A DNA stretch of 10,867 bases, from positions 1-10,867 of IMG/VR virus record IMGVR_UViG_2541047874_000002. The stretch is one strand, 5' to 3'. Below, one piece after another: positions 1 through 10,867 of this stretch (its first letter is position 1; each line of letters starts with the position of its first letter). The translations under genes were made by a program, and so were the position numbers. The DNA is from a virus (lineage: Duplodnaviria; Heunggongvirae; Uroviricota; Caudoviricetes). Under the pieces are notes generated by a model. It was not told the origin of the DNA and searched no databases. It saw only the letters and a program-made list of their open reading frames with translations.

Positions 1-64
1 TTCCCCGTCGGGCTACGGTCATGGTTAATGCGGAAATACGGCGACGATGCAGCGCGGTATTTAA

Positions 65-84
65 TGTGCGACCACGGTCGCACA
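65..84. repeat. Copy 1 of dispersed near-palindrome TGTGCGACCACGGTCGCACA, about 20 nt downstream of the stop of the 103..414 minus-strand gene
   Basis: Read directly: 20-mer at 65-84; centre CCACGG on the plus strand. Same motif at 3105-3124, 7945-7963 and 10390-10407. Confidence 0.9.
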
Positions 85-102
85 CGAGAAACAAAGAGAT
101 TT

Positions 103-414
103 TTATGCTACAGAGGAACAAGCTGGCGGGTAATTCAGCGTAGTGAATACCGGCATCTCCATCTTGTATGCGTAATGATACTCAGCAGTTGCTCCAGCAG
201 ACGCTTTCCAGCCAGGAAGCATCAAAATAGCATCAGCACAACGAAGCATTGCAAAGCAAATATCCATGTATTCACGTTGTGTCAGACCATTAGGCAAAGT
301 GGCTGGATTCAAGACAGAGTGACCATGTCGTGACAAACGATCTGCCTCTTTATTAAAGGCGTCACGATTAAAGTTCTCATATCCAGTCATTGGCCCGGCA
401 ATATAAATTTTCAT
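103..414 (-). CDS. DUF4406 / nucleoside 2-deoxyribosyltransferase-like phage protein
   Basis: 103-aa ORF with N-terminal MKIYIAGPMTGY motif typical of this family (recalled, not searched); ATG at 414; follows the lysis cassette as a moron-like gene. Confidence 0.65.
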   Translation of the reverse strand: MKIYIAGPMTGYENFNRDAFNKEADRLSRHGHSVLNPATLPNGLTQREYMDICFAMLRCADAILMLPGWKASAGATAEYHYAYKMEMPVFTTLNYPPACSSVA

Positions 415-455
415 TCACTATCCAACAAATTGAGTTCGTTTTTGATACAGAGGGA

Positions 456-923
456 TTAATTCGGGCATTGCGTCTTGATGTATTCCTGAAGCGTTCTCAG
501 TGCTGTCTGGTCTCTGATGATTCCGTCCCGGATACCGAGAACGTTTCGTCCAGCAACTGGAGAGAGTTCGACGGTGGCATCATTGCCCATGCCGGAGGCG
601 CTGGAGGTTTCGGCTGAGGATGGCACAGAGCATTTTCCTTTGACGAGCACCCGACCACCATTATCAAGCTTGCGCCGAAGAGCATCATTTTCAGCTTTCG
701 CATCAGCCAACTCCTTCGTGTATTTTGCATCGAGCGCAGCAACATCACGCTGACGCTGCTGCATGTCAGCGATGGTGGCGGTCGCCTGCTTCAGCTCACT
801 GACTTTTTTATCACGCTGTTCTTTGTAGGCGATGGCGTTATCACGGTAATGATTAACAGCCCACGACAGGCAGACGATGATGCAGATAACCAGTGCGGAG
901 ATAATTGCGGTTACTCTGCTCAT
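456..923 (-). CDS. Rz: Rz i-spanin (lysis)
   Basis: Translation from the ATG at 923 ([30 protein letters not shown]...[19 protein letters not shown]) closely matches recalled phage lambda Rz; N-terminal transmembrane segment. The track ORF begins at a GTG at 935; the first ATG is preferred. Confidence 0.85.
497..703 (-). CDS. Rz1: Rz1 o-spanin lipoprotein, embedded out of frame inside Rz
   Basis: Embedded ORF in an alternate frame of Rz; ATG at 703 gives [21 protein letters not shown] with a lipobox (VVGC) and proline-rich segment [11 protein letters not shown], as in lambda Rz1. The annotated ORF is longer than lambda Rz1, so the exact extent is uncertain. Confidence 0.7.
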
Positions 924-1420
924 TGCTGCCCCCACAAACAGACTTCACGCTCAATCTCACGGCGAGTCATCAGCCCTTTCCATTGCTTGCCGCCAGCATA
1001 TGTCCAGCGACGTAGTTGATCACATGCACCTTTGATATCGCCCTGGTTGATTTTGCGAAGAAGTGTCGATGTACTGAAATTGCCTGCACCCACGTTGTAA
1101 ACGAACGAGTAAAGAGCACCACGCGTTGTTTCCGGTATATCGACTTTGATGTACGGGTTAATTTGTCTGGCGACAGTAGCAAGGTCTTTATTCAGGAGAG
1201 CTTTGCATTCTGCTTCGGTATACGTTTTACCGAGCATAATGTCTTTTCCTGTATGCCCGTAACATACAGTCCATACACCAACGATGTCTTTGTAGGGGTT
1301 ATGTCTCACACCTTCCAGACCATCGTTGCCGCTCGGACCAGAGATGAGCACAGATGCTATGGCAATAGCCCCGCCACCAATAGCAGTTGCGACAGCTTTG
1401 CGTAATGATGACTGCATCAT
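920..1420 (-). CDS. Phage lysozyme-type endolysin with N-terminal signal-anchor-release (SAR) segment
   Basis: 166 aa; N-terminal hydrophobic Gly/Ala-rich stretch ([20 protein letters not shown]) followed by a lysozyme-like domain; start ATG overlaps the holin stop (ATGA); lies between holin and Rz. Confidence 0.8.
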
Positions 1421-1689
1421 ATTTCCTTCGGTGCTCTCTTTCCCAATTCACCAATAACCATCGCCGTGGCGGAAATATTATTGGCATCAGTTTTATCCAA
1501 TATGTCCTGCAATATCTTCGTGCGCTTCATCTGCTCGCGTTTATTGAGCCGGTATGTAAGTACACCGAGGATAATGCTGAACGCGACACCGATAATGAAG
1601 CCCCAATCCTGCAATGACAGGCTGGCAAAGAACGCAGTAAGACCAGCACTACCATAAGATGCGCTGCTGTATCGTTCATCCATCTTCAT
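1417..1689 (-). CDS. Class II holin (pinholin-like) with MKM dual-start motif
   Basis: 90 aa, two predicted transmembrane segments ([32 protein letters not shown]), charged C-terminus, MKM start, GAGG Shine-Dalgarno upstream; directly upstream of the SAR endolysin. Confidence 0.75.
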
Positions 1690-1784
1690 ATCTCTTACCT
1701 CGCAATAGTTGCTGAGGTTTCGGCTTGGAAACTATACGGCGAGAAATAACCCCATCAAAAACGGCAGGGGAATATATTCTTCAG

Positions 1785-2861
1785 TTACTCAAATAACTTT
1801 TTCACTTCATCAACTGTCTGAAGATAACGTTCACCCTCAATCTCAATACCGATTGCCTGACGACCTAACTTCAGCGCGGCTTTAATAGTAGAGCCTGATC
1901 CCATAAAGAAATCGGCAACGATATCTCCGGGGCGGGAACTACTTTTTATAATATGTTCCATCATCGCTGCAGGTTTTTCACATGGGTGCTTGCCAGGATA
2001 ATATTGCACAGGAGGAAACTCCCATACATCGGTATAAGGTACATCAGCAGTAACATGAAATGGGCGGCGCAAATTTTCATACTGAGCCTTCAAATCATCA
2101 TACTGCTTCTTTACTTCCTCATAACGCAATTTCAGATCGCTATAACGCTTTTCATGTTCTGAATAATCAACATTAAAAGGATATGGACACGGGACACCGA
2201 GTGAATCTGCCTTCCTGCGAAATAATTCGCATAGTTTATTAAAATCACTTAATGATGGAAGCCGCCACTGCGAATAAGAAAACCAGTGCGAACACATCTG
2301 CTTTCCTGTTGCTGAATTAATGTCTGCGGCTGATATATCTAACTGACGGCGAGCCAGCGAAAAAGCATCAATTAGTGGAGAAAAAATATTTTTTCTTAAA
2401 TCTGCACATTTTGAAGCATAACCTGACTGACCTTTAGCATAACCTGACGCGCCGTAATGCTCTGCAAATAATATTCTTTCAGTGGCAGGAAAATAAGCCC
2501 TTAAACTTTCTTTATGACAACCGCGCCACATACCACTGGGTTTAGCCCAAATGATATGGTTCAGAACATTGAAACGGTCGCGAGTTAATAATTCAATTTT
2601 TGACGCAAGGCGAGAGCCGGTAAACATATACAGGCTGCCATTAGGGGCCAATATCCGCCAAAATTCTGCCAAAAATTCATCAATCCACCCCAAAAAGTCA
2701 GCATCGCTATCCCACTGGTTATCCCATGCGTTAGCCTTTACGCCGAAGTATGGTGGGTCTGTTGCAATCAAATTGACCGAGTTATCAGGGATGGTTTTGA
2801 TAAATTGCAGAGAATCTGCGCAAACGAGTTGCGCGCCATGAATATTAGTGGTTTTGAACAT
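1785..2861 (-). CDS. Beta-class amino-DNA methyltransferase (N6-adenine or N4-cytosine), orphan
   Basis: DPPY catalytic motif near the N-terminus and FxGxG-type AdoMet motif (DFFMGSGST) near the C-terminus. Start ambiguous: ATG at 2861 (MFKTT...) or ATG at 2906; neither has a strong Shine-Dalgarno. No restriction-endonuclease partner seen. Confidence 0.8.
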   Translation of the reverse strand: MFKTTNIHGAQLVCADSLQFIKTIPDNSVNLIATDPPYFGVKANAWDNQWDSDADFLGWIDEFLAEFWRILAPNGSLYMFTGSRLASKIELLTRDRFNVLNHIIWAKPSGMWRGCHKESLRAYFPATERILFAEHYGASGYAKGQSGYASKCADLRKNIFSPLIDAFSLARRQLDISAADINSATGKQMCSHWFSYSQWRLPSLSDFNKLCELFRRKADSLGVPCPYPFNVDYSEHEKRYSDLKLRYEEVKKQYDDLKAQYENLRRPFHVTADVPYTDVWEFPPVQYYPGKHPCEKPAAMMEHIIKSSSRPGDIVADFFMGSGSTIKAALKLGRQAIGIEIEGERYLQTVDEVKKLFE

Positions 2862-2953
2862 AGCTATTATTTTTTTGCCTGGGTAAGCTAACCCGGCGAT
2901 GCGCATCGCGGGTGGGCTTTAGGTTCAGCCTATAGCTCTGGCATGGGTTGACC

Positions 2954-2979
2954 GCAGGACAAGCTGCAACTTGTCCTGC
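2954..2979 (-). promoter_or_regulatory. Stable hairpin (10-bp stems, 6-nt loop) in the methyltransferase leader
   Basis: GCAGGACAAG-CTGCAA-CTTGTCCTGC inverted repeat read directly; not followed by a T-tract on the transcribed strand, so not a simple terminator. Confidence 0.4.
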
Positions 2980-2996
2980 GCCCACTTTTCAGGCAC

Positions 2997-3018
2997 AAAA
3001 AAACCGCCATAAAGGCGG
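2997..3018 (-). terminator. Rho-independent terminator (minus strand), candidate tR'-like late terminator
   Basis: Minus strand reads CCGCC-TTTAT-GGCGG followed by TTTTTTT; sits between the small-gene operon and the methyltransferase/lysis genes. Confidence 0.5.
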
Positions 3019-3057
3019 CTTGTTGGCTGTTGGGTACAAAAAACCCAACTTAACAAA

Positions 3058-3086
3058 ACAATAACTAAAAACCGTAATTTTGCCAA
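3058..3086 (-). promoter_or_regulatory. Candidate sigma70 promoter (minus strand): -35 TTGGCA, 16-17 bp spacer, -10 TATTGT
   Basis: Read on the reverse complement; lies about 40-60 nt upstream of the terminator at 2997-3018, resembling a PR'/tR' arrangement. Pattern match only. Confidence 0.3.
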
Positions 3087-3104
3087 GCTTTTTCGTTTTT
3101 GTGC

Positions 3105-3124
3105 TGTGCGACCGTGGTCGCACA
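3105..3124. repeat. Copy 2 of dispersed near-palindrome (TGTGCGACCGTGGTCGCACA), just downstream of the 3129..3356 gene stop and about 20 bp upstream of the candidate -35
   Basis: Read directly; opposite centre orientation to copy 1 (CCGTGG on plus); followed by AGTTTTT on the plus strand. Confidence 0.9.
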
Positions 3125-3128
3125 GTTT

Positions 3129-3356
3129 TTAGAAAGTTGCCTGCTTATATTCATCGGTCAAAGAATATCGACCAGACCCGCTACGCTTTGCAACCCCAAA
3201 ACAGATCATCTGTTCGATGATAAATTCAACGGCAGCTTGACTCAAAAAACAGGCTTCGCTTAACTCTTTCAGGGAAATGCGTGGGTATCCACGCATAACA
3301 CATTCCACACTCAGGGCCGCTTCAGTCATATTTCCACGAATTTCATTAATATTCAT
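3129..3356 (-). CDS. Hypothetical small protein (75 aa), possible winged-helix fold
   Basis: ORF with GAGAGG Shine-Dalgarno 4 nt upstream of ATG 3356; second gene of a two-gene operon; no family confidently recognised. Confidence 0.5.
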   Translation of the reverse strand: MNINEIRGNMTEAALSVECVMRGYPRISLKELSEACFLSQAAVEFIIEQMICFGVAKRSGSGRYSLTDEYKQATF

Positions 3357-3369
3357 AACGCCTCTCTAA

Positions 3370-3591
3370 TCAATCTTGAAACTGGAAATCAACATCAGCC
3401 ATAAAGCGGTTCAACTCAGCCAGTTTTGGCCCCATAGTCCCAACTAAGCGACCAGCCAGTCGGTCTGCCAGGTTGGTACTGTTGAAACCATATTCCTTTT
3501 CGAAACGTTCAACCTTCTGCCACAACTCATACAGTTCGTTAGCTATCTCCGCAACGTCGTCGCGCATTTTTTCGTTACCTTGATAATTCAT
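3370..3591 (-). CDS. Hypothetical small acidic protein (about 73 aa)
   Basis: Internal ATG at 3591 has a perfect GGAGG Shine-Dalgarno 5-6 nt upstream; the track ORF extends to 3609. No family recognised. Confidence 0.5.
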   Translation of the reverse strand: MNYQGNEKMRDDVAEIANELYELWQKVERFEKEYGFNSTNLADRLAGRLVGTMGPKLAELNRFMADVDFQFQD

Positions 3592-3680
3592 AATATCCTC
3601 CAAATTCATATAGTTAGTGGGTTATTGCCCCTCAATGACACGAACTGTAACTCTGCCAAACGAACACATCCAGTGTTATT

Positions 3681-3698
3681 TTTCACTTTTTAGTGAAA
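3681..3698. promoter_or_regulatory. 18-bp perfect inverted repeat TTTCACT-TTTT-AGTGAAA upstream of higB-like gene (candidate operator)
   Basis: Read directly; lies in the divergent promoter region between the 3591 operon and the toxin-antitoxin operon. Confidence 0.4.
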
Positions 3699-3756
3699 TT
3701 TTTAATTTGCGCTTTTTTCTTGTTTTGGTGTATTTTATGGCTATGGAGGCTATAAT

Positions 3757-4068
3757 ATGTTTAACGTGATAACCCACCCTGCAGCACTGGATGAACTGCT
3801 TGAACTACCAGATGATTTGCGAGGTCGCATGACCAGATTAATTGAGCGACTGGAGAAGGAAGGCAACAAACTGAAGATGCCCCATAGCCGTGTAATAGGT
3901 GGAGGGCTTTTTGAACTACGAGTAGGGGATAAAAACATCGCAAGAACGCTGTACGCCTACGCGACTGGTAACGAAATTTATCTATTGCATGCATTTGTAA
4001 AAAAGACACAGAAAACACCGGTGAAGGCTATCGAAATCGCCAGAACTCGCCTGAAGGAGATGAACTGA
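3757..4068 (+). CDS. higB: Type II toxin, RelE/ParE superfamily, HigB / Gp49-like
   Basis: 103 aa; C-terminal LYAYATGNEIYLLHAFVKKTQKTP motif characteristic of HigB/Gp49-like toxins (recalled); GGAGG Shine-Dalgarno; toxin-first order; stop overlaps the antitoxin start (TGATG). Confidence 0.8.
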   Translation: MFNVITHPAALDELLELPDDLRGRMTRLIERLEKEGNKLKMPHSRVIGGGLFELRVGDKNIARTLYAYATGNEIYLLHAFVKKTQKTPVKAIEIARTRLKEMN

Positions 4069-4355
4069 TGAAAGCAAAAGGCATCCCGTTTAACGAAGTA
4101 AAGGAAAAACTACTCAACACTCCAGAAGCTATCAAAGGATATGAAGAGGCCGATAAAGAACTGGAGATGGTCGAAATGTTATACGAAATGAGGGAAAGAG
4201 CAGGTTTAACGAAGTCAGCTCTGGCAGAACGAATGGGATTGCGCCCGTCCGCCATCAGCCGCCTGGAAAGCAATCCTTTAGGGGCAAGTATGAAAACTTT
4301 ATCAAAATATGCCCAGGCATGTGGCGCAACAATTAATATTAATGCCGTCTATTGA
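4068..4355 (+). CDS. higA: Type II antitoxin, HTH XRE-family (HigA-like)
   Basis: 95 aa with helix-turn-helix segment (LTKSALAERMGLRPSAISRLE); translationally coupled to the upstream toxin. Confidence 0.8.
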   Translation: MKAKGIPFNEVKEKLLNTPEAIKGYEEADKELEMVEMLYEMRERAGLTKSALAERMGLRPSAISRLESNPLGASMKTLSKYAQACGATININAVY

Positions 4356-4372
4356 TTAATCACTTTTCACTA

Positions 4373-4392
4373 CCCCGTCCAGAAGGGCGGGG
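4373..4392 (+). terminator. Hairpin between convergent genes (putative higBA terminator)
   Basis: CCCCGTCC-AGAA-GGGCGGGG, 8-bp stem with one G-U pair, 18 nt after the higA stop; weak U-tract, so termination efficiency is uncertain. Confidence 0.35.
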
Positions 4393-4398
4393 TGTGTA

Positions 4399-4617
4399 TC
4401 AATGATGTAAACACTCAACAGCAATCGCTTGTTGGCAATTCTGAGCAATCTCCCGCGACATACTAACAAGCCGTGAAATCTCGCCAAGATGCAAGCTAGC
4501 TTCGGGAGAAGCCAGAGCAACGTTAACCAGATCCAAAACGGCGTCGATGTCTTTTAGGTTTGATTCGAGTTCTTCAAGAGTTGATACAGATGCTTCAGTC
4601 ATTGAATCTAATACCAT
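4399..4617 (-). CDS. Small acidic helical protein (72 aa), putatively LexA/SOS-regulated; candidate antirepressor
   Basis: ORF begins 25 nt downstream of a near-consensus LexA box; no strong Shine-Dalgarno (alternative ATG at 4602); function inferred from context only. Confidence 0.5.
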   Translation of the reverse strand: MVLDSMTEASVSTLEELESNLKDIDAVLDLVNVALASPEASLHLGEISRLVSMSREIAQNCQQAIAVECLHH

Positions 4618-4639
4618 TTAATTAAAAAAGGTTATTTGA

Positions 4640-4659
4640 TACTGTATAAAATTACAGGG
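4640..4659. promoter_or_regulatory. LexA (SOS) box TACTGTATAAAATTACAGGG
   Basis: Matches the E. coli LexA consensus TACTGT-(AT)4-ACAGTA at 16 of 20 positions with the CTGT-N8-ACAG core intact; sits immediately upstream of the 4399..4617 gene in an AT-rich intergenic region. Confidence 0.6.
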
Positions 4660-4859
4660 TAAAACTCAAATTTTATAGCCAACTTTCAATGGATTAACTG
4701 GGTTAATAGTTTTGTAGTCAGATATTTATGTTCTCTTCCTACGCCTCACTCAACCACCTACAGAAGCCCATCATCACCATAAGAAAAGCTCTTTTCGCTT
4801 CGTTTGCGTATCATTTCAAAAAGCAATGCCTTTTTATCCATTTATCCCTCCGTGACCAG

Positions 4860-5186
4860 TCACGCTTTGAGCGCAAGTTTCAGCCTCGTGGTTGTAAGGT
4901 GGCATGAGCCTTCACCATCAAAAATGCATTCTGAAACAGGCATTTTTTGACCACATCGCGGACAAGCAGCAGATAGCTGCTTCTGCAACTCCTTATAGTT
5001 TTTCCTGATCAGAAGGCCGATAACTTCATTCTCTGAATATGGGACTCGCCCCGGTCTACGCAATACACAAATTTCCCCCAACATACGTAACTCGTCAGGT
5101 TCCAGAATCCAGTCCCGTCTTGATGTGCCTTCCTTCTTCAACCGTTCCCTGCGTCTCCTTTGCCGTTCTGCCGGTGTCAGCGCCAT
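4860..5186 (-). CDS. Hypothetical basic protein (108 aa) with C-terminal Cys4 zinc-ribbon-like motif
   Basis: AGGAGG Shine-Dalgarno 4 nt upstream of ATG 5186; Arg-rich N-terminus (ERQRRRRERLKKEG); C-terminal CPRCG...C...C. Possible regulator; family not recognised. Confidence 0.55.
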   Translation of the reverse strand: MALTPAERQRRRRERLKKEGTSRRDWILEPDELRMLGEICVLRRPGRVPYSENEVIGLLIRKNYKELQKQLSAACPRCGQKMPVSECIFDGEGSCHLTTTRLKLALKA

Positions 5187-5201
5187 AAATCCTCCTGAAA
5201 A

Positions 5202-5615
5202 TTACTTAACCCAATTAACTACACCGCCAGCGGCCACAACCGCCCTTTCACAGTCACGCTCATATCTCAAAGGTTGAAATACACCATCAATAAAATATTT
5301 ATCTCCACCAAACGCTGCAGGAAGTGAAACAGAAAACTGAATAGGATTATCATCCGGCACCACCGGCAGTGGCTGGGCTACATATAGTGACTGAACATAC
5401 CAGCCCTTTGATAACCAACTGTCAGCAATGTTTTTACTCCGGGTTATTGCCGGAATACCTAAGCCATTGTCTAAATGCAGCCATGCCACCGGTTCTGCTT
5501 CCAGCGAGGCTAACGCTATTTCATAAGCCCGGCGCTCAATATTGTCTCTCACGTCCAGGCTGCCTATGCGCTCTTTGATTTCTTTAATCAGTTCTTTGTC
5601 GGTAAAAGTGCTCAT
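5202..5615 (-). CDS. Hypothetical phage protein, paralog A (shares ALASLEAEPVAW and AQP-P motifs with 5617..6066)
   Basis: 137 aa; AAGGAG Shine-Dalgarno; start 2 nt after the stop of paralog B. Confidence 0.6.
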   Translation of the reverse strand: MSTFTDKELIKEIKERIGSLDVRDNIERRAYEIALASLEAEPVAWLHLDNGLGIPAITRSKNIADSWLSKGWYVQSLYVAQPLPVVPDDNPIQFSVSLPAAFGGDKYFIDGVFQPLRYERDCERAVVAAGGVVNWVK

Positions 5616-5616
5616 A

Positions 5617-6066
5617 TCAATCTCCTTTGGTACCGATATTTACAGCCTGGCAAGCCTCTTTGAGCACCCAGTCAACAGCGTCTTTCCATGCTCCGGTTTC
5701 GACTGGCGGATTTTCACGCTTTACCTGTTCATAGAAACGCACTGCTTTAATCAATCCTTCTGATGTCAGTGGCACAGGCTGAGCCGTGAATAACGCCTGA
5801 ATTTCATAGTTCGGCCTGTCGTTGCAATCCTCTTTTGTCGGTACATATTTCCAGTCACCAACCCACGGCTCCCCCTGAGAGTCCGTTACGCCTTTTTTCA
5901 TGTAGCGATATCGCCACGCTACCGGCTCTGCTTCCAACGATGCCAGCGCGATACGAAACACATCAGCAAGCAGACTGTCTAAAGATTGATTATCGTGCGC
6001 CGGGTCGCTCAGGAAGCCATTGATGAATGATTTAATCTTCGAGCTTTCTCTGGTAATAGTGGTCAT
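5617..6066 (-). CDS. Hypothetical phage protein, paralog B
   Basis: Start reassigned to ATG at 6066 (MTTITRESS...) with AAGGAGAG Shine-Dalgarno; the longer track ORF (to 6228) would overlap the upstream gene. Confidence 0.55.
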   Translation of the reverse strand: MTTITRESSKIKSFINGFLSDPAHDNQSLDSLLADVFRIALASLEAEPVAWRYRYMKKGVTDSQGEPWVGDWKYVPTKEDCNDRPNYEIQALFTAQPVPLTSEGLIKAVRFYEQVKRENPPVETGAWKDAVDWVLKEACQAVNIGTKGD

Positions 6067-6067
6067 A

Positions 6068-6694
6068 TCACTCTCCTTTGCGAAGCTCTGCGGCAAAGTC
6101 AGTCGCATGCTCACCGAGTAGTTTCCAGTTATCGCGTATATCAGATGCAAGCGCCTGTTCGGATTTTGAGTTACATCTCTGTGCAAACATCTCCAATCCC
6201 TGCGCCCGGACTTCAGCCAGGAAAGCATCGGTGGCTGGAATGGGCTTTTGTGGTGATATAGCTATGCGAATTGTCTCAAGGTCTGGATCCGTTTCCGCTG
6301 TTGGCACCTTGATATAACCCATCTGCACCCCATTCATGATGAACCTGCGGCGGTCCTCACACATCACCTTCAGTCTCGCATTCTCCGCCGCCAGCGCCGA
6401 AAACTTCTCGTGTGCCAACTTAACAGCCGAATCAGCCTGCTTAATTGACTCAATCGCTCTCTGGTGGTCTTCAGTCATCGCCGCTAAATTAGCCTCCAGT
6501 TCGGCTATGCGTTCGTTTAATGCATCTCGCTCATCCAACAGAGATAGCGTAATAATCGGTGAATGGCATTGGATATACCGCGTCAGTGTGCGCATATATC
6601 CATCAGCGTTCAAATCATCTTCAAGGCCTGTCCAGTTAATTTTACTGGCGCTCTCAGCTGCTTCACGCAGTACCTGATAATTGATTTCACTCAC
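6068..6694 (-). CDS. Ea22-like family protein (coiled-coil)
   Basis: N-terminus SEINYQVLREAAE and LLDERDALNE resemble recalled lambda Ea22 (MSEINSQALREAAE..., LLDERERNQQ); GTG start at 6694 with AGGAGG Shine-Dalgarno 6 nt upstream, overlapping the upstream stop (GTGA). Confidence 0.7.
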   Translation of the reverse strand: MSEINYQVLREAAESASKINWTGLEDDLNADGYMRTLTRYIQCHSPIITLSLLDERDALNERIAELEANLAAMTEDHQRAIESIKQADSAVKLAHEKFSALAAENARLKVMCEDRRRFIMNGVQMGYIKVPTAETDPDLETIRIAISPQKPIPATDAFLAEVRAQGLEMFAQRCNSKSEQALASDIRDNWKLLGEHATDFAAELRKGE

Positions 6695-7113
6695 AGTACT
6701 ACCTCCTGAAGATTTCCCTGATAAAACGCCAGCACACGCTGCATAACTTCGCTCTTCTGGCAATCGTGACAAATCATGTTCAAGCGCCTGTCGTAACGAC
6801 GTATTTCTCCGTCAGGTAATGACCAGATAAGGTCTGGATCAACCACTACCGATTTCTTCGGCTTTACTCTTGATAGTTTTTTACGGGCGTTTTGCCAGTC
6901 CTTGCGTGCTTGTGCAGACAGAAATATCCCGGAGCCAGAGATATACAAATCACCACTGGCAGCAAGCTCTCTTGATAAACGACTAACAGCACACCGGCTA
7001 ATACCAGTTTCATCCGCAAGTTGCCTAACCGTTCCTCGTCCATTCAGGCGCACGAGTTCCACAATTTGTTTATTCAGTTCTTCCCTCTGTTCTGGTGTAA
7101 AAGCCTTTGCCAT
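6691..7113 (-). CDS. Helix-turn-helix DNA-binding protein (140 aa), hypothetical regulator
   Basis: HTH-like segment (TVRQLADETGISRCAVSRLSRELA); C-terminal CHDC; start overlaps the exonuclease stop (TAATG). Confidence 0.55.
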   Translation of the reverse strand: MAKAFTPEQREELNKQIVELVRLNGRGTVRQLADETGISRCAVSRLSRELAASGDLYISGSGIFLSAQARKDWQNARKKLSRVKPKKSVVVDPDLIWSLPDGEIRRYDRRLNMICHDCQKSEVMQRVLAFYQGNLQEVVL

Positions 7114-7712
7114 TACGATTCTCCTTGCCCTTTTACAAGACGGGAGAAAATTGCGGATACATATTTAGCCTGATGAATAGCATCAGCCAGGGCATTGTGT
7201 CGTTCGCCATCAAATGGCATATCTTTTTTAGGATTAAAACCAATAAACTGACCAAGATTAACGATTGTTCTAACATCCTGATCATTAAAATATTCCCACG
7301 GACAGGCTAAGCCAACGCGCTCATAAACGCCGCGTAAAATTACATTATCGAACGTTGCTCCATTTCCCCATACTTTCAATGTTTTTAAATTACAAGCATG
7401 GCAAGTAATAAAGTGTGATAATTCAAAAAGTGCATCCTTAATATCAAGGGCATCATTAGTACAAATTGCGGCTCTGGCTTCCTTGCTCTGTCGCAACCAC
7501 CATAAAATGGTATCACCATCGGCAACACCACCATTTAACATCGAGCTTCTGAGATTCACTGGTACATAAAAAGTGGCACCTAATTCCTCACTTTCTGGAG
7601 AAAAAAACACTGCCCCGATAGAAACAATTGGAGCACATGTATTAGTACCCATTGTTTCAAGGTCAATCATTACATCAGACCGTTTCCTGTCGTAAATAAT
7701 CTGATTAGTCAC
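7113..7712 (-). CDS. DEDD-family 3'-5' exonuclease (DnaQ-like, phage-type)
   Basis: N-terminal MIDLETMGT Exo I motif and C-terminal H-x4-D (HNALADAIH) motif; GTG start at 7712 with GAGGAG Shine-Dalgarno (alternative ATG at 7670). Confidence 0.7.
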   Translation of the reverse strand: MTNQIIYDRKRSDVMIDLETMGTNTCAPIVSIGAVFFSPESEELGATFYVPVNLRSSMLNGGVADGDTILWWLRQSKEARAAICTNDALDIKDALFELSHFITCHACNLKTLKVWGNGATFDNVILRGVYERVGLACPWEYFNDQDVRTIVNLGQFIGFNPKKDMPFDGERHNALADAIHQAKYVSAIFSRLVKGQGES

Positions 7713-7735
7713 GAATAATTCTCCTCAATGTTTAT

Positions 7736-7939
7736 CTATGCCCAAAACTTCTGTTGATATGTTCTGGATGGTTTTGGCGCTCTTTCTGATTCAGGTAAAT
7801 GAACATAAACGCAATATCCATCACCTAAAAAATCAGAACGAACAACCAGAACTTTCTTACCACGCCGCCGATAAGTATCTGAAAGACGCTCTGCTTCATC
7901 ATGCGTCATCGGCCCCTGTTTAAATGGCGTTATTTTCAT
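7736..7939 (-). CDS. Hypothetical small protein (about 67 aa)
   Basis: First ATG at 7939; the track ORF starts at a GTG inside the palindrome at 7963; no family recognised. Confidence 0.4.
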   Translation of the reverse strand: MKITPFKQGPMTHDEAERLSDTYRRRGKKVLVVRSDFLGDGYCVYVHLPESERAPKPSRTYQQKFWA

Positions 7940-8240
7940 TTTCTTGTGCGACCACGGTCGCACCCTCTCTGATTTCCAAGTAACGCTTAATCCAAAGATT
8001 TTCTATATGCTTATTACCTGGCTGATTTGATAAATACCAATCGGCAATTACAGACTGCTTATTACTATCTGGTCGTGTCCTGTAACCACAAGTTGGACAC
8101 CAAATAACATATTCATTTCTTACCCCCGAATACCTTAATTCTGGCTTCGACGGTTTCCTGAACATAACTTGTTTACAAAGGCAGAATGGCACTTCCTGCC
8201 CGATGGCGTTTGATGATTTCACTGCGCTTCTCCGCCGCAT
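7920..8240 (-). CDS. Small zinc-ribbon protein, possibly Lar-family restriction-alleviation-like
   Basis: CxC...CPTCG cysteine pairs (FCLC, CPTCG) about 22 aa apart; ATG at 8240 overlaps the upstream gene by 68 nt, so the start is uncertain (alternative ATG 8165 would lose the first Cys pair). Confidence 0.4.
   Translation of the reverse strand: MRRRSAVKSSNAIGQEVPFCLCKQVMFRKPSKPELRYSGVRNEYVIWCPTCGYRTRPDSNKQSVIADWYLSNQPGNKHIENLWIKRYLEIREGATVVAQENENNAI
7945..7963. repeat. Copy 3 of dispersed near-palindrome (TGTGCGACCACGGTCGCAC), overlapping the 3' end of the Lar-like ORF and 6 nt upstream of the 7939 ATG
   Basis: Read directly; on the coding (minus) strand it is read in frame as A-T-V-V-A-Q. 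Confidence 0.9.
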
Positions 8241-8883
8241 TTAATAATGCGGTTCGATTTAAGCTCAGACATCGCGACTTAATTAAAAGCCAGCGTTCTT
8301 TATAATCTTGTCTCCAGCTATCAATAGATATATTCAGTAGAAAACTCAGATGCCTGTCCTGTTCTCTCTCATCAACTGCCTCAGCACACGTAAGTTCTGA
8401 TTTAACCTGTTGTGCCGCGTAATAAATCAATTTCCGCATGGCTTTTTTCGTGGAGGCCTTCATTTTTTTAAAGCCGCCCCCCGAATGAGCAACCAGAAAA
8501 TCAAGCCATAACCACTGACAAACAATCACATCATTGTTGTAATCAGGCTTGCATCCGTAGCAATAATAAAGCCAGGCTGATTCCTCGTTATTCAACTGAC
8601 CAATAGCCCTGCGCCAGCTGGCGCTCTGAAAATCAATATCAGTGAGCAACATTGATGATTGTTTAAATGTTTTCCCCTGATGGAATCTAACCGGCTCAGC
8701 AGGAACGGACACTTCGTATGAGTTATCATCCCCCACACTGATTGACCGGACTGGTTTATTGTTAAACCGTCCTGATCTACCGAGACGCATCTGCTCAAGC
8801 TGGACCTCCAGAATGCCACGCTGGCGATAATGAACATCAGCCAATGCCGTAGAGACGCAGCTGCGTATATACTCAAGCTCCAC
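8173..8883 (-). CDS. Hypothetical early protein (236 aa from GTG 8883; alternative ATG 8790)
   Basis: Long ORF immediately downstream of the cro-like gene; contains CYGC; function not recognisable by eye (replication or regulatory role possible). Confidence 0.5.
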   Translation of the reverse strand: MELEYIRSCVSTALADVHYRQRGILEVQLEQMRLGRSGRFNNKPVRSISVGDDNSYEVSVPAEPVRFHQGKTFKQSSMLLTDIDFQSASWRRAIGQLNNEESAWLYYCYGCKPDYNNDVIVCQWLWLDFLVAHSGGGFKKMKASTKKAMRKLIYYAAQQVKSELTCAEAVDEREQDRHLSFLLNISIDSWRQDYKERWLLIKSRCLSLNRTALLNAAEKRSEIIKRHRAGSAILPL

Positions 8884-9094
8884 GCTTACGACTCTCCTTA
8901 ATCGACTGCTTTACCCGCCGAGTTGTAAAGTCACTCTTCAGCTTATAAGCAGTACGAACTTCAATATCGCTTTGCCGCAATGAAGGAATCTCTCCAGCGG
9001 TTAACCATTGGTAAACAGCTCCGGGTGTTACACCTACCCCTGCCGCTGCTTTTTCTACACTGCCAAAATGGCGAATAAGTTCTTCTGGTTTCAT
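8873..9094 (-). CDS. cro: Cro-like repressor (P22 Cro-type HTH)
   Basis: MKPEELIRHFGSVEKAAAGVGVTPGAVYQW resembles recalled P22 Cro (DVIDHFGTQRAVAKALGISDAAVSQW); divergent from the CI-like gene across an operator-rich region. No obvious Shine-Dalgarno. Confidence 0.7.
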   Translation of the reverse strand: MKPEELIRHFGSVEKAAAGVGVTPGAVYQWLTAGEIPSLRQSDIEVRTAYKLKSDFTTRRVKQSIKESRKRGA

Positions 9095-9185
9095 GTTGTT
9101 ATTATAAACAATAAACAACAATTAAAGCCAGCTATAATAAATAAATTTTATAGCCAGCTATAAGAAGATCATTTATGATTACAGT
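9095..9185. promoter_or_regulatory. Immunity-region divergent promoter/operator segment
   Basis: Direct repeat of GCCAGCTATAA (9127-9137, 9153-9163); 16-bp near-palindrome TTATAGCCAGCTATAA (9148-9163) and half-related TTAAAGCCAGCTATAA (9122-9137); TTGTT...AACAA repeats at 9096-9120. The CI-like ATG has no Shine-Dalgarno, so a leaderless mRNA is possible. Confidence 0.55.
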
Positions 9186-9782
9186 ATGAAAACACGAGGC
9201 GAACGACTGAAAGCACGCCGTTTAGAGATGAAGCTGACGTTGCGAGAAGTTGCTGAGGCTGTCGATATCTCTATAGCAGGCGTCCAAAACTTAGAACGTG
9301 GCGACGTAATGCCGTCACTGGAGATAGGTATTGCCCTGGCTAAGTGCTTACGCAAGCCAGTGCATTGGGTGCTATATGGGACAGAATATGACCCTGATCG
9401 CATTCCTGTTATTGGCACAACTGAAAGTGGGCCGGATGAAGAGTGGAAGCCGGGACAGGTTCCAAATACTGAGCGATTCCTGCCATTCATCAGCCAGCGC
9501 AATACTGTGTATGCGTTAACTATCAGCAATCTTACGCAGGGAAACTATCAGCCAGGCGATTTTCTCCTGGTCGATTCTGCGCTGGAACTGGTCCCCGGCG
9601 AGGATGTTCTGGTTCGTGATACTGCAGGAAATATCACTATCCAGCGCCTGGCCCGTTTTGATGATGAAAATTACTATCTGGATGGAACAAACTCACAACG
9701 CGCCATCTTCAGGAAAAGCGATCTTGAATTTGTTCACCAAATAGTCGGAACGATCAAATCATTCATGGTTGAGGGTAGATGA
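9186..9782 (+). CDS. CI-like prophage repressor: N-terminal XRE HTH plus LexA/S24-like C-terminal domain with apparently degenerate catalytic Lys
   Basis: 198 aa; HTH (LTLREVAEAVDISIAGVQNLERG); C-terminal PGDFLLVD...NITIQRL aligns by eye with LexA GDLLAV...VTVKRL but has Gln where the catalytic Lys would be. Confidence 0.75.
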   Translation: MKTRGERLKARRLEMKLTLREVAEAVDISIAGVQNLERGDVMPSLEIGIALAKCLRKPVHWVLYGTEYDPDRIPVIGTTESGPDEEWKPGQVPNTERFLPFISQRNTVYALTISNLTQGNYQPGDFLLVDSALELVPGEDVLVRDTAGNITIQRLARFDDENYYLDGTNSQRAIFRKSDLEFVHQIVGTIKSFMVEGR

Positions 9783-9884
9783 CTTAATACGGGGTTTATT
9801 GTTTGCTGTAAATCTGGTTTAATGCAGGGCATATGTTCTGTGGGTTGACTCAGGTTACAGCAGCAGAAAAAAGACGAAAAAAAA

Positions 9885-9912
9885 CCCGAGTCGGCAAACT
9901 CGGGTCCTTTTC
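9885..9912 (+). terminator. Rho-independent terminator after the CI-like gene
   Basis: CCCGAG-TCGGCAAA-CTCGGG hairpin followed by TCCTTTTC and preceded by an A-tract (possibly bidirectional). Confidence 0.5.
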
Positions 9913-10026
9913 AGGAAGCAGCCACAACAACGCGACAGATTCCGTCAATTCAAGATGCGTTTATTGTGGCTGCTCCTGCGGATTTTTTCAACCCGAAAAA
10001 ACATAATTCGCATGGAATGGCTAAAA

Positions 10027-10866
10027 AATGACATTAAACGATTTCTATGCGGATCGCTTTGGCAGCGATCCGTTCTCGCTAATTGAAGCAGCACGGGATG
10101 AACTAACCGAGCTGGCACAGATGGCTGGTATCAACTGGCCTGCCTGTTCCGACAACATCCAACTCAACCCTCGCGGGGGGGTTGAGCGTTACTCTTCATA
10201 CAATAAAACATCTCCAGAAGCTCTCGAAAAGAGCCTGAAAGGACGCGTAGAAATTTACTCCAGGCTGGAACACAGCAAAGGGATTGATTACCCGTTCATT
10301 AACTTCGTCCATAAAGGCAGCGATGCTGGCTCATGGAGCGGTTTCTCCTTCCTGTTTTCTGAATATCGCCGTGAGCAACAACGGAATAATGCGACCGTGG
10401 TCGCACAACCGGAAGAAGAACGGGAAAGAATAGAACGTCAGGCCGAAGCACGTCGTCGCCGTGAAGAACAAAAACGAATTAATGACCTGAAAAACAACCA
10501 AATGGACCATGAACGTTTGCTGGGATGGCTGGCATTCCACAGCGCGTGGGAACATGCTCAGGCTGAAGACGGCTCATGGCCATATGCGATTAAAAAAGGT
10601 ATTCGTGACGTTTTTAGTTCATGTGATGTGCGTCGCGTGACCAGTCACGACAGTGCGAAATGGAGCCGGGGGCCAACCACATATATGGCTATCCCTCTGG
10701 CTCACCTGGACGGTCGTTATGATGGTCGTATTGTGGGTTGGCAGCGAATCGACAAACAAGGTGGGAAATACCAGACCAGCGCAGTAACCAGCGGCGATTT
10801 CGTCGGTGCCTGCTTTGTTATCGGTGAGCTGAAAGGGGCGCAAAACATCGCTGTTACAGAAGGTTT
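10027..10866 (+). CDS. Primase-like replication protein, N-terminal part (truncated by window end)
   Basis: Frame open from ATG 10027 to the window end (280 codons, verified codon by codon); charged linker EEERERIERQAEARRRREEQKR; ends in IAVTEGF, resembling the start of a TOPRIM acidic motif. Not in the ORF track because it has no stop. Confidence 0.5.
10390..10407. repeat. Copy 4 of dispersed near-palindrome (TGCGACCGTGGTCGCACA) inside the primase-like coding sequence
   Basis: Read directly; encodes A-T-V-V-A-Q in the plus frame, just before the charged linker. Confidence 0.9.
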
Positions 10867-10867
10867 T

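Follow-up and report, generated by a model that had tools for sequence, protein, structure and literature searches.

A probable late-transcription control region homologous to N15 p52, and a conserved structured leader, in an N15-like linear phage-plasmid

Gene content and layout of the late-control region

The window analysed here is a 10,867 nucleotide (nt) stretch of viral DNA (IMG/VR record IMGVR_UViG_2541047874_000002, positions 1 to 10,867), and we focus on the segment just upstream of its methylase gene, where a first-pass annotation had placed a candidate late promoter, a short terminated leader and a structured RNA. Judged by its sequence, the window is part of an N15-like (Ravinvirus) linear phage-plasmid, or linear plasmid prophage. 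A megablast search with the whole window matched Escherichia phage YDC107_1 (Ravinvirus; 98.4% identity over 87%); PhiR46_1 is 97.5% identical over 87% of the window and both the Klebsiella phage phiKO2 and phage N15 show ~75% identity. The genes follow the N15 order and lie mainly on the minus strand. As a whole, the segment very probably represents a late-transcription control point homologous to N15 p52.

The late-control region (301 nt) aligns with N15 positions 41124-41400 with 83.5% identity over 276 nt (E 1e-74). It is present in 16 of 5426 complete Escherichia coli genomes, in every case on a plasmid of ~46 kilobases (kb) or larger. At the corresponding place in N15 (41162-41250) the record marks a -35, a -10 and a rho-independent terminator, and the phiKO2 record lists, in order, a 'putative plasmid partitioning site', a 'putative late promoter' (-35, -10), a 'terminator' and then the gp52 methylase. 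N15 and the window share the order gp50, gp51, palindrome, -35/-10, terminator, methylase, lysis genes. The features of the window that bear on late transcription are as follows.

8173-8883, minus strand: Q82-family late antiterminator, homolog of N15 gene 40, 236 amino acids (aa) (PF06323, E 4e-84; PHROG 304, E 2e-72)
7947-7962, no strand: sopC-type palindrome just downstream of Q, the N15 IR2 equivalent (phiKO2 has a partition site at the same relative place)
3105-3124, no strand: sopC-type centromere palindrome TGTGCGACCACGGTCGCACA, 20 base pairs (bp), the N15 IR3 equivalent (phiKO2 annotation; comparison with F sopC)
3058-3086, minus strand: late promoter, p52 homolog (marked in the records of N15 and phiKO2; every clade has either this promoter or a functional replacement)
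3044-3052, minus strand: invariant TAAGTTGGG, candidate sigma-dependent pause element (invariant alignment columns)
3029-3049, minus strand: hairpin 1 of the short leader, GTTGGGT-TTTTTGT-ACCCAAC (fold; strand comparison)
2997-3021, minus strand: intrinsic terminator t52, core CCGCC/GGCGG (annotated in the N15 and phiKO2 records)
2862-2996, minus strand: conserved structured leader, 135 nt (alignments; fold)
2995-2990 with 2881-2876, minus strand: proposed helix P0 (hand reading of alignments)
2985-2980 with 2917-2912, minus strand: proposed helix P1 (covariation)
2954-2979, strand uncertain, with substitutions that fit the plus strand better: hairpin P2, 10-bp stem (covariation)
2911-2892, minus strand: proposed helix P4, with an invariant GCGC loop at 2904-2901 (alignments)
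1785-2861, minus strand: N6/N4 DNA methyltransferase (here called the methylase), first late gene, homolog of N15 gene 52 (PF01555, E 1e-46; PHROG 67)

Promoter, short terminated leader and Q

The sigma70 promoter proposed by the first-pass annotation was recovered on the minus strand, with -35 TTGGCA (3086-3081) and -10 TATTGT (3063-3058) separated by a 17-bp spacer and matching the consensus at 9 of 12 positions. Together with the +1 motif, hairpin 1 and the terminator, it recurs in all 13 aligned elements of the N15/phiKO2/PY54 group. The promoter exists in two versions, TTGGCA-17-TATYGT and TTGCAA-17-TAnnnT, with an identical -10/+1 register; in the PY54, P840, L221, L213 and L022 elements the -35 is TTGCAA, TTGCCA or TTGATA, followed by 17 bp and TAnnnT. 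The -10 hexamers of all clades fit TAnnnT and are followed by five variable bases and then by the invariant TAWGTTGG(G/C). From this spacing the start site is placed at A3051, 7 nt past the -10.

The intrinsic terminator is a strong one, with a stem AAGCCGCC/GGCGGTTT at 3021-3001 and a T7 run at 3003-2997 on the minus strand. Its GGCGGTTTTTTT is invariant in all relatives, as is the core CCGCC/GGCGG with U7, and its loop varies. The 58-nt RNA from +1 through the U run folds at -23.5 kcal/mol (z score -3.8), and the terminated RNA would be ~50-55 nt long with its 3' end at 2997-3000. Directly past +1 lies a conserved hairpin that the first-pass annotation had missed. This hairpin 1 is more stable as minus-strand RNA than as plus-strand RNA in 18 of 18 variants, and its stems in N15 (GUUGGG/CCUGAC), PY54 and L022 are, by hand reading, kept through G.U wobbles on the mRNA strand. 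The block from +1 to the terminator is ~79% identical between the window and PY54 and is the most conserved DNA between the E. coli and Yersinia elements.

These features support a PR'/tR'-like promoter-terminator unit that would need antitermination, as had been proposed; the unit is a homolog of N15 p52, for which, as for phiKO2, the record annotates both promoter and terminator. The first-pass annotation had also stated that no recognisable Q gene lies adjacent. Adjacent it is not, since Q stops at 8173, 5.1 kb and ~12 open reading frames (ORFs) away from the -35 at 3086. But a Q gene is present (8173-8883), so that the puzzle of the missing Q is answered inside the same window, and the distant arrangement is the same as in N15. 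The product of this gene is the very 236-aa early protein that had been suggested as a candidate activator, a role replaced by that of a Q82-family antiterminator on the strength of its PF06323 match. PHROG 304 carries the label 'anti-termination protein Q-like', and the N15 record names gene 40 'late transcription activator'. PF06323 is the Q82 family and lambda Q belongs to PF03589 (PMC9388147). The window Q is 66.5% identical to N15 gp40 and 31% identical to PY54 Q, and no solved structure was found among its homologs.

In N15, too, a Q82-family Q lies 5-6 kb upstream, and there are four dispersed palindromes at places that match those in the window. N15 Q is reportedly 6 kb upstream of p52 and is said to have antiterminator activity, with terminator sequences reportedly located between p52 and the first ORF. 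The two elements differ in that their Q proteins are only 66.5% identical, and in compensatory changes in the 3' arm of hairpin 1 and in the P2 stem.

Lambda PR'-qut-tR' offers a more distant parallel. There, as is proposed for the window, a nearby intrinsic terminator stops the transcript, Q makes the polymerase terminator-resistant, and one long late operon carries the lysis, head and tail genes. A -10-like hexamer followed by GGG is found at the transcript start in both (AACGATGGG in lambda, TAAGTTGGG here). Lambda differs in that its Q shows no sequence similarity to the window Q and abuts PR' instead of lying 5.1 kb away, in that its terminated RNA (6S RNA) measures 194 nt and not ~50-55 nt, and in that it has no upstream partition site.

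The +1 motif TAAGTTGGG consists of a -10-like hexamer, in which A2 and T6 are kept, and GGG, spanning approximately -1 to +8; the third G is G or C among relatives. The layout of lambda PR', TAAATT-TGACTC-AACGATGGG, is equal to that of TAWGTTGG here, and in lambda the -10-like PR' element retains sigma70 at the pause site used for Q loading. By analogy, TAAGTTGGG most likely holds the sigma70-RNA polymerase in a promoter-proximal pause. The motif is kept even though PY54 Q is only 31% identical, which fits a reading by host sigma70 and not by Q; the -35/-10 spacer, unlike the +1 motif, differs between the two Q groups. Two further exact matches to TAWGTTGGS, at 5077-5085 and 6414-6422, lie inside genes without promoter context and were dismissed as chance.

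We observe homology, gene identities, conservation and covariation; the steps of the mechanism, including +1, the pause, Q loading and the SopB effect, are extrapolated from homology and from what is published on N15 and lambda. The sigma70 promoter would start a transcript at approximately A3051, after which sigma70 would re-engage TAAGTTGGG and the polymerase would pause near the promoter. Without Q, the RNA would form the 5' hairpin and stop at the intrinsic terminator after ~50-55 nt. After induction, Q produced from the cro-Q operon (8173-8883), 5.1 kb upstream, would load on the paused complex, and the Q-modified, terminator-resistant polymerase would continue into the methylase and lysis genes and, past cos, into the genes for head and tail, covering ~29 kb in a single direction. 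SopB bound to the palindrome would assist late expression. The lysis genes and the methylase of the window (456-2861) share a single orientation, and in PhiR46_1 (a complete, linear record with telL/telR at its ends) almost everything from 14970 to ~43600 lies on one strand, covering methylase, lysis, terminase, head, tail and tail fibre genes.

Several points weigh against this reading. Consensus promoter sites are not above chance in the window (13 vs 18.2 +/- 5.4 in shuffles), and neither are consensus terminator sites (9 vs 10.7 +/- 3.2); the promoter and terminator stand out because they are conserved and folded, not because of consensus matching. The position of +1 follows from spacing only, and no Q-binding element could be defined for the late region. 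Gifsy-1/phage 82-type late promoters are served by the same Q family and have the same architecture of promoter, short structured leader and terminator, but their Q gene is adjacent, and the late promoters adjoining lambdoid Q82-family genes (Gifsy-1, PhiR47_2 and phiES15) show no sequence similarity to the window in promoter or leader beyond that architecture. Finally, since PY54 Q is only 31% identical while the block from +1 to the terminator is ~79% identical, part of the conservation must serve a role other than Q recognition.

In a reading compatible with Q-dependent control, the short terminated RNA (~3051-2997) would be a constitutive Hfq-type small RNA (sRNA) that acts in trans in the lysogen. 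The RNA has a suitable build, in which the single-stranded linker AGCCAACAA joins a 5' hairpin to a terminator with U7, and it coincides with the most conserved block mentioned above. A precedent is StxS, an sRNA from the terminated PR' transcript of Stx phages, whose promoter is described as always active during lysogeny (PMC7547250). Like the window RNA, StxS is a short late-leader RNA produced by termination, and it carries a terminator hairpin and a U tail, but the two are not related in sequence. The Gifsy-1 short leader is another such case, being the IsrK sRNA (RF01394); on visual comparison, the late leader beside the Q82-family Q gene of Gifsy-1 fits the consensus of the IsrK model. 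The linker of the window RNA is, however, not conserved between clades, which leaves no conserved seed. When the window, five relatives and the sub-region were compared with Rfam, nothing came close to a gathering threshold, be it for the short leader (2997-3051) or for either strand of the 135-nt leader (2862-2996). The best scores (AgrB 27.3 bits vs 40, ctRNA_pGA1 22.9 vs 45 and isrK 14-22 vs 50) were driven by the terminator, and the identity with isrK was rejected as its hits were also out of register and differed in register among loci. We consider the sRNA role quite unlikely.

The same segment is disrupted or masked in two other records. In the IMG/VR element IMGVR_UViG_3300036846_000707 (L074, 5605-6360) an IS3-family transposase gene has taken the place of the late promoter, of hairpin 1 and of the terminator's 5' arm, with leader and methylase intact, and the prophage may thereby be unable to express its late genes. 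In PhiR46_1 (L250) an annotated coding sequence of 53 aa at 14790-14951, corresponding to the window ORF 2925-3086, covers the late promoter, terminator and leader, and the methylase is annotated to start at 14970, at an upstream ATG within the P4 loop (window 2906). Neither annotation is probably real, as phiKO2-type sequences have not kept this ATG.

The partition palindrome ahead of the promoter

Taking +1 as A3051, the palindrome at 3124-3105 spans -54 to -73 with its centre at -63.5. Its 16-bp core TGCGACCRYGGTCGCA occurs four times in the window, at 67, 3107, 7947 and 10390, where 0.01 occurrences are expected. Three of the copies, inside repA, just past Q and ahead of the late promoter, are at the places of the phiKO2 partition sites, and the fourth is downstream of the lysis genes. 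The window thus has several copies of a TGGGACCNNGGTCCCA-type 16-bp inverted repeat, and the cognate ParA/ParB are encoded in the close relative PhiR46_1 (43667-45822, at the far end of the record and outside the window). Compared with the F sopC unit TGGGACCACGGTCCCA, the window sequence TGCGACCRYGGTCGCA differs by one symmetric G/C swap per arm, and the exact F-type sequence is found upstream of p52 in the PY54, P840, L221, L213 and L022 elements. F sopC consists of at least 10 copies, 43 bp apart, directly after sopB, whereas the window has single copies dispersed over more than 10 kb, of which the one discussed here, unlike the clustered F repeats, is in helical phase with the late promoter. 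From this sequence relationship, the palindrome is taken to be one of four dispersed SopB-binding partition sites.

The first-pass annotation had placed a class I activator site here. Such sites are centred at about -61.5, -71.5 and so forth, and the idea that the position matters agrees with the phasing described next, but the site is a dispersed partition palindrome, and the factor would be SopB and not a dedicated class I activator. The palindrome centre is at -63.5 in the window, phiKO2 and Klebsiella types, at -64.5 in N15, whose palindrome is shifted away from the promoter by 1 bp, and at -52.5 in PY54-type elements (L004, L005, L213, L221 and L226 compared). The difference between -63.5 and -52.5 is 11 bp, or one helical turn, and is combined with two different -35 hexamers. 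This hints that a palindrome-bound protein may act on the promoter from one face of the helix. Mutation of IR2 or IR3 in N15 reportedly delays lysis and lowers p52 expression. The title of the N15 study (Ravin, Rech & Lane 2008, J Bacteriol 190:3538) states that late expression is facilitated by the Sop system, and a palindrome that stimulates the promoter would agree with both this title and the one-turn phasing.

The same position could also be read as a class I site bound by a phage transcription factor of its own, such as the 108-aa protein encoded at 4860-5186, in which case the promoter would depend on an activator and not on Q. The exact helical turn between the two centre positions would suit such a factor, and the 108-aa protein matches PHROG 536, labelled 'transcriptional regulator'. 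We regard this as highly improbable. The palindrome is found not only at the promoter but also past the lysis genes and in the interior of repA. It departs from F sopC by a single symmetric base change, with the exact F sequence in PY54 types, and it is labelled a partition site in phiKO2, with ParA/ParB encoded in a close relative. Moreover, a terminator 30 nt past +1 together with a Q82-family gene points to an antitermination switch.

In Klebsiella phage 48ST307 (L007, 495-590) two partition palindromes are found ~46 bp apart ahead of the late promoter, a spacing close to the 43 bp of F sopC.

The methylase leader and the wider gene context

The structured RNA that the first-pass annotation had placed upstream of the methyltransferase gene was borne out as a conserved secondary structure with compensatory changes, located downstream of the terminator. 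The 135-nt leader folds at -56.1 kcal/mol on the sense strand (z -4.9), and it is conserved from the U run to the methylase ATG at 2861 out to the Yersinia phages (27 distinct full-length sequences). Invariant strings include UGCCU, UGGGCGC, ACCCAUGCC, GCCCA, the GCGC loop and AGCYUA, as well as ACCCATGCC at 2948-2940. Compared with the flanking genes, the sense strand of the leader is unusually rich in A and C and poor in U.

Scans of genomes, IMG/VR and metagenomes found the leader only in N15-like elements, with hosts in Escherichia, Klebsiella, Enterobacter and Yersinia. In the genome scan 2 of 66 motif matches were true, one in Pseudocitrobacter and one on a Klebsiella-type contig in a 'Limoniibacter' assembly, and the rest were chance matches in GC-rich genomes. 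IMG/VR gave 48 N15-type matches among 119 (50 passed the filter, but the loci L050 and L089 were rejected as chance matches), and 35 of 42 distinct metagenome segments were true. Among plasmids, a PLSDB search yielded 210 matching records. The 'Limoniibacter' contig (NZ_BMZO01000013.1, L172, from an alphaproteobacterial assembly labelled 'Limoniibacter endophyticus') holds a Klebsiella-type N15-like late region, with a leader identical to the commonest Klebsiella-type variant that is also seen in 21 further loci, phage 48ST307 among them. The contig probably stems from contamination.

Four helices can be proposed. P0 pairs UGCCUG with CAGGCA, versus GCCUU with AAGGC in phiKO2 (hand reading), and P1 is GUGGGC/GCCCAC in 14 sequences versus AUGGGC/GCCCAU in 18. 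P4 alternates between CCCGCGAU-GCGC-AUCGC(N)GGG and UUGCUGAU(U)-GCGC-(A)AUCAGCAA. The 10-bp hairpin of the first-pass annotation is P2, GCAGGACAAG-TTGCAG-CTTGTCCTGC at 2979-2954, with a folding energy of -17.7 kcal/mol. In the phiKO2, Klebsiella and PY54 clades 4 of 11 P2 pairs have changed on both sides. The P2 covariation score and percentage of paired cells were reached by none of 500 shuffles, and only 11-23% of cells pair when the structure is shifted by one column.

We possibly have here, though with a clearly less than even chance, a cis-acting 5' untranslated region (UTR) of the late mRNA, made only after Q read-through, in which the P0-P4 fold stabilises the long transcript or sets methylase translation. 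The leader lies inside the proposed transcription unit, directly ahead of the first late ORF, which is without a good Shine-Dalgarno sequence; the sense strand is well folded; P1 covaries; and P0, by hand reading, also covaries and ties the bases that immediately follow the terminator to others located ~15-20 nt ahead of the ATG. No Rfam cis-regulatory family matched. In a variant of this idea, the C-rich single strands between the hairpins (ACCCAUGCC and AAAGCCCACCC) form a Rho-dependent back-up terminator that only Q-modified polymerase passes. The Rho idea was set aside, as the leader is no striking rut site; its best 78-nt C/G ratio (1.3-1.6) is only at about the 90th percentile of the window.

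The substitutions in P2 point to the other strand. The 16 P2 variants contain 159 Watson-Crick cells, 14 A.C cells and no G.U cells on the minus strand, so that all 14 non-Watson-Crick cells are A.C on the mRNA strand and G.U on the plus strand. By hand count they go back to ~7 separate changes. A formal count over the phiKO2, Klebsiella and PY54 clades gave 91.7% paired cells on the minus strand versus 100% on the plus strand, and P2 is more stable as plus-strand RNA in 15 of 16 variants. If the sense strand were selected to be high in C and low in G, mismatches of the A.C and not the G.U kind would also result, which would reconcile these counts with a cis-acting role. Hairpin 1 serves as an internal control, and since its bias is opposite (sense-stable in all 18 variants) the asymmetry of P2 is not a property of the whole region. 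This suggests that P2 is selected on the plus strand, either as an antisense RNA or as a terminator in the antisense direction.

The hairpins after the terminator might accordingly belong to a plus-strand transcript, as an antisense RNA over the methylase leader or as plus-strand terminators, although we consider this somewhat unlikely. They could limit the leaky expression of methylase and lysis genes in a lysogen, or keep antisense transcription away from p52. Apart from P2, an 8-bp helix P3 (CAGCCUAU/AUGGGUUG) in the window/N15 clade relies on two G.U pairs and is thereby confined to the plus strand (hand reading), and is contained in the computed plus-strand fold; the plus strand is rich in G and U, and a short U run follows P1/P2 (UUUU in the window). 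However, the U run after P1 is not conserved (UUUCC or UUCUA in some clades), and a search of 10 clades found no conserved sigma70-like plus-strand promoter within 140 nt of the methylase start and none that is convincing in the gene. There are also no downstream genes on the plus strand in N15 or PhiR46_1 from which antisense transcription might come, save one 58-aa ORF 4.6 kb away. Over the leader as a whole, folding energy favours the plus strand (-9.0 kcal/mol), but this was rejected as evidence, since composition-preserving shuffles show an equal bias (-7.1 +/- 4.2). That the 135-nt block is an undescribed antisense RNA or terminator of N15-like telomere phage-plasmids, opposing the late mRNA, is to our judgement unlikely.

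Coding explanations for the leader conservation fared poorly. Peptide coding is unlikely because of 1-2-nt indels between clades. An in-frame upstream ATG at 2906 was rejected as the methylase start, as it is lost in phiKO2-type sequences (GATTGCGC).

The start of the methylase gene itself varies among relatives. Its opening 30 nt are almost invariant, synonymous sites included, in the phiKO2, Klebsiella, PY54 and L022 clades. These nucleotides (equivalent to window 2861-2830; ~11205-11235 in L002) contain the hairpin CACTGT-N8-ACAGTG followed by T5 on the plus strand, a hairpin that the window/N15 clade is without. In N15, gene 52 is annotated 234 nt further down and its frame is interrupted near the start, unlike in the window. 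The N15 frame from the ATG homologous to 2861 (41383-41623; L003, 860-1100) stops after ~25 codons, and the N15 methylase therefore appears to be frameshifted or N-terminally truncated compared with all relatives.

The remaining genes of the window are listed below.

beyond 10028, minus strand: start of repA (N15 gene order)
9186-9782, plus strand: cB
8873-9121, minus strand: cro, in a cro-Q operon with Q (8173-8883)
4860-5186: the 108-aa protein (PHROG 536)
3757-4355, plus strand: RelE/ParE-type toxin and helix-turn-helix (HTH) antitoxin pair, homologs of N15 genes 48 and 49
3370-3609, minus strand: gp50 homolog
3129-3356, minus strand: gp51 homolog, a small winged-helix-like protein (PHROG 331; weak HTH_24 match) and the final gene ahead of the late promoter
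456-1689, minus strand: lysis cassette (Pfam matches; annotation of relatives), composed of the three genes below
1417-1689, minus strand: holin (Pfam)
920-1420, minus strand: lysozyme (Pfam)
456-935, minus strand: Rz-like spanin (Pfam)

The toxin-antitoxin pair is embedded among early genes on the opposite strand to them. Between cB and repA there is a very strong terminator-like hairpin (9877-9912, minus strand; 16 pairs, T8), whose equivalent in phiKO2 is annotated as a 'putative bidirectional' terminator and which gave a weak sub-threshold NsiR1 match. Two adjacent 26-nt direct repeats (AATAAAYAA...AGCCAGCTAT) are located at 9110-9161 between cB and cro and are probably the CB/Cro operators, as annotated in the N15 record. 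A scan of the window for transfer RNA and transfer-messenger RNA genes found none. The YDC107_1 record (L245, CP025712.1) contains an inverted duplication at 28000-46701 centred on the protelomerase gene and is without the tail-fibre and par region, as if the assembly had crossed a hairpin telomere.

The late switch itself is already known, as it has been described for N15 and is annotated in the N15 and phiKO2 genomes. Beyond these records, the present analysis adds a candidate pause element, a partition site in helical phase with the promoter, and a leader with strand asymmetry. The +1 motif is a concrete candidate pause element for the Q82 family, the sole Q family without a solved structure. 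The helical phase kept in two promoter architectures supports a direct, face-of-helix coupling between SopB and late transcription. The leader, with its strand-asymmetric covariation, is a candidate for a new phage RNA element in phage-plasmids that are common in clinical Klebsiella and E. coli. If it does oppose the late mRNA as an antisense RNA or terminator, these elements would have, beside Q antitermination and SopB, a second safeguard against methylase and lysis expression that is based on RNA.

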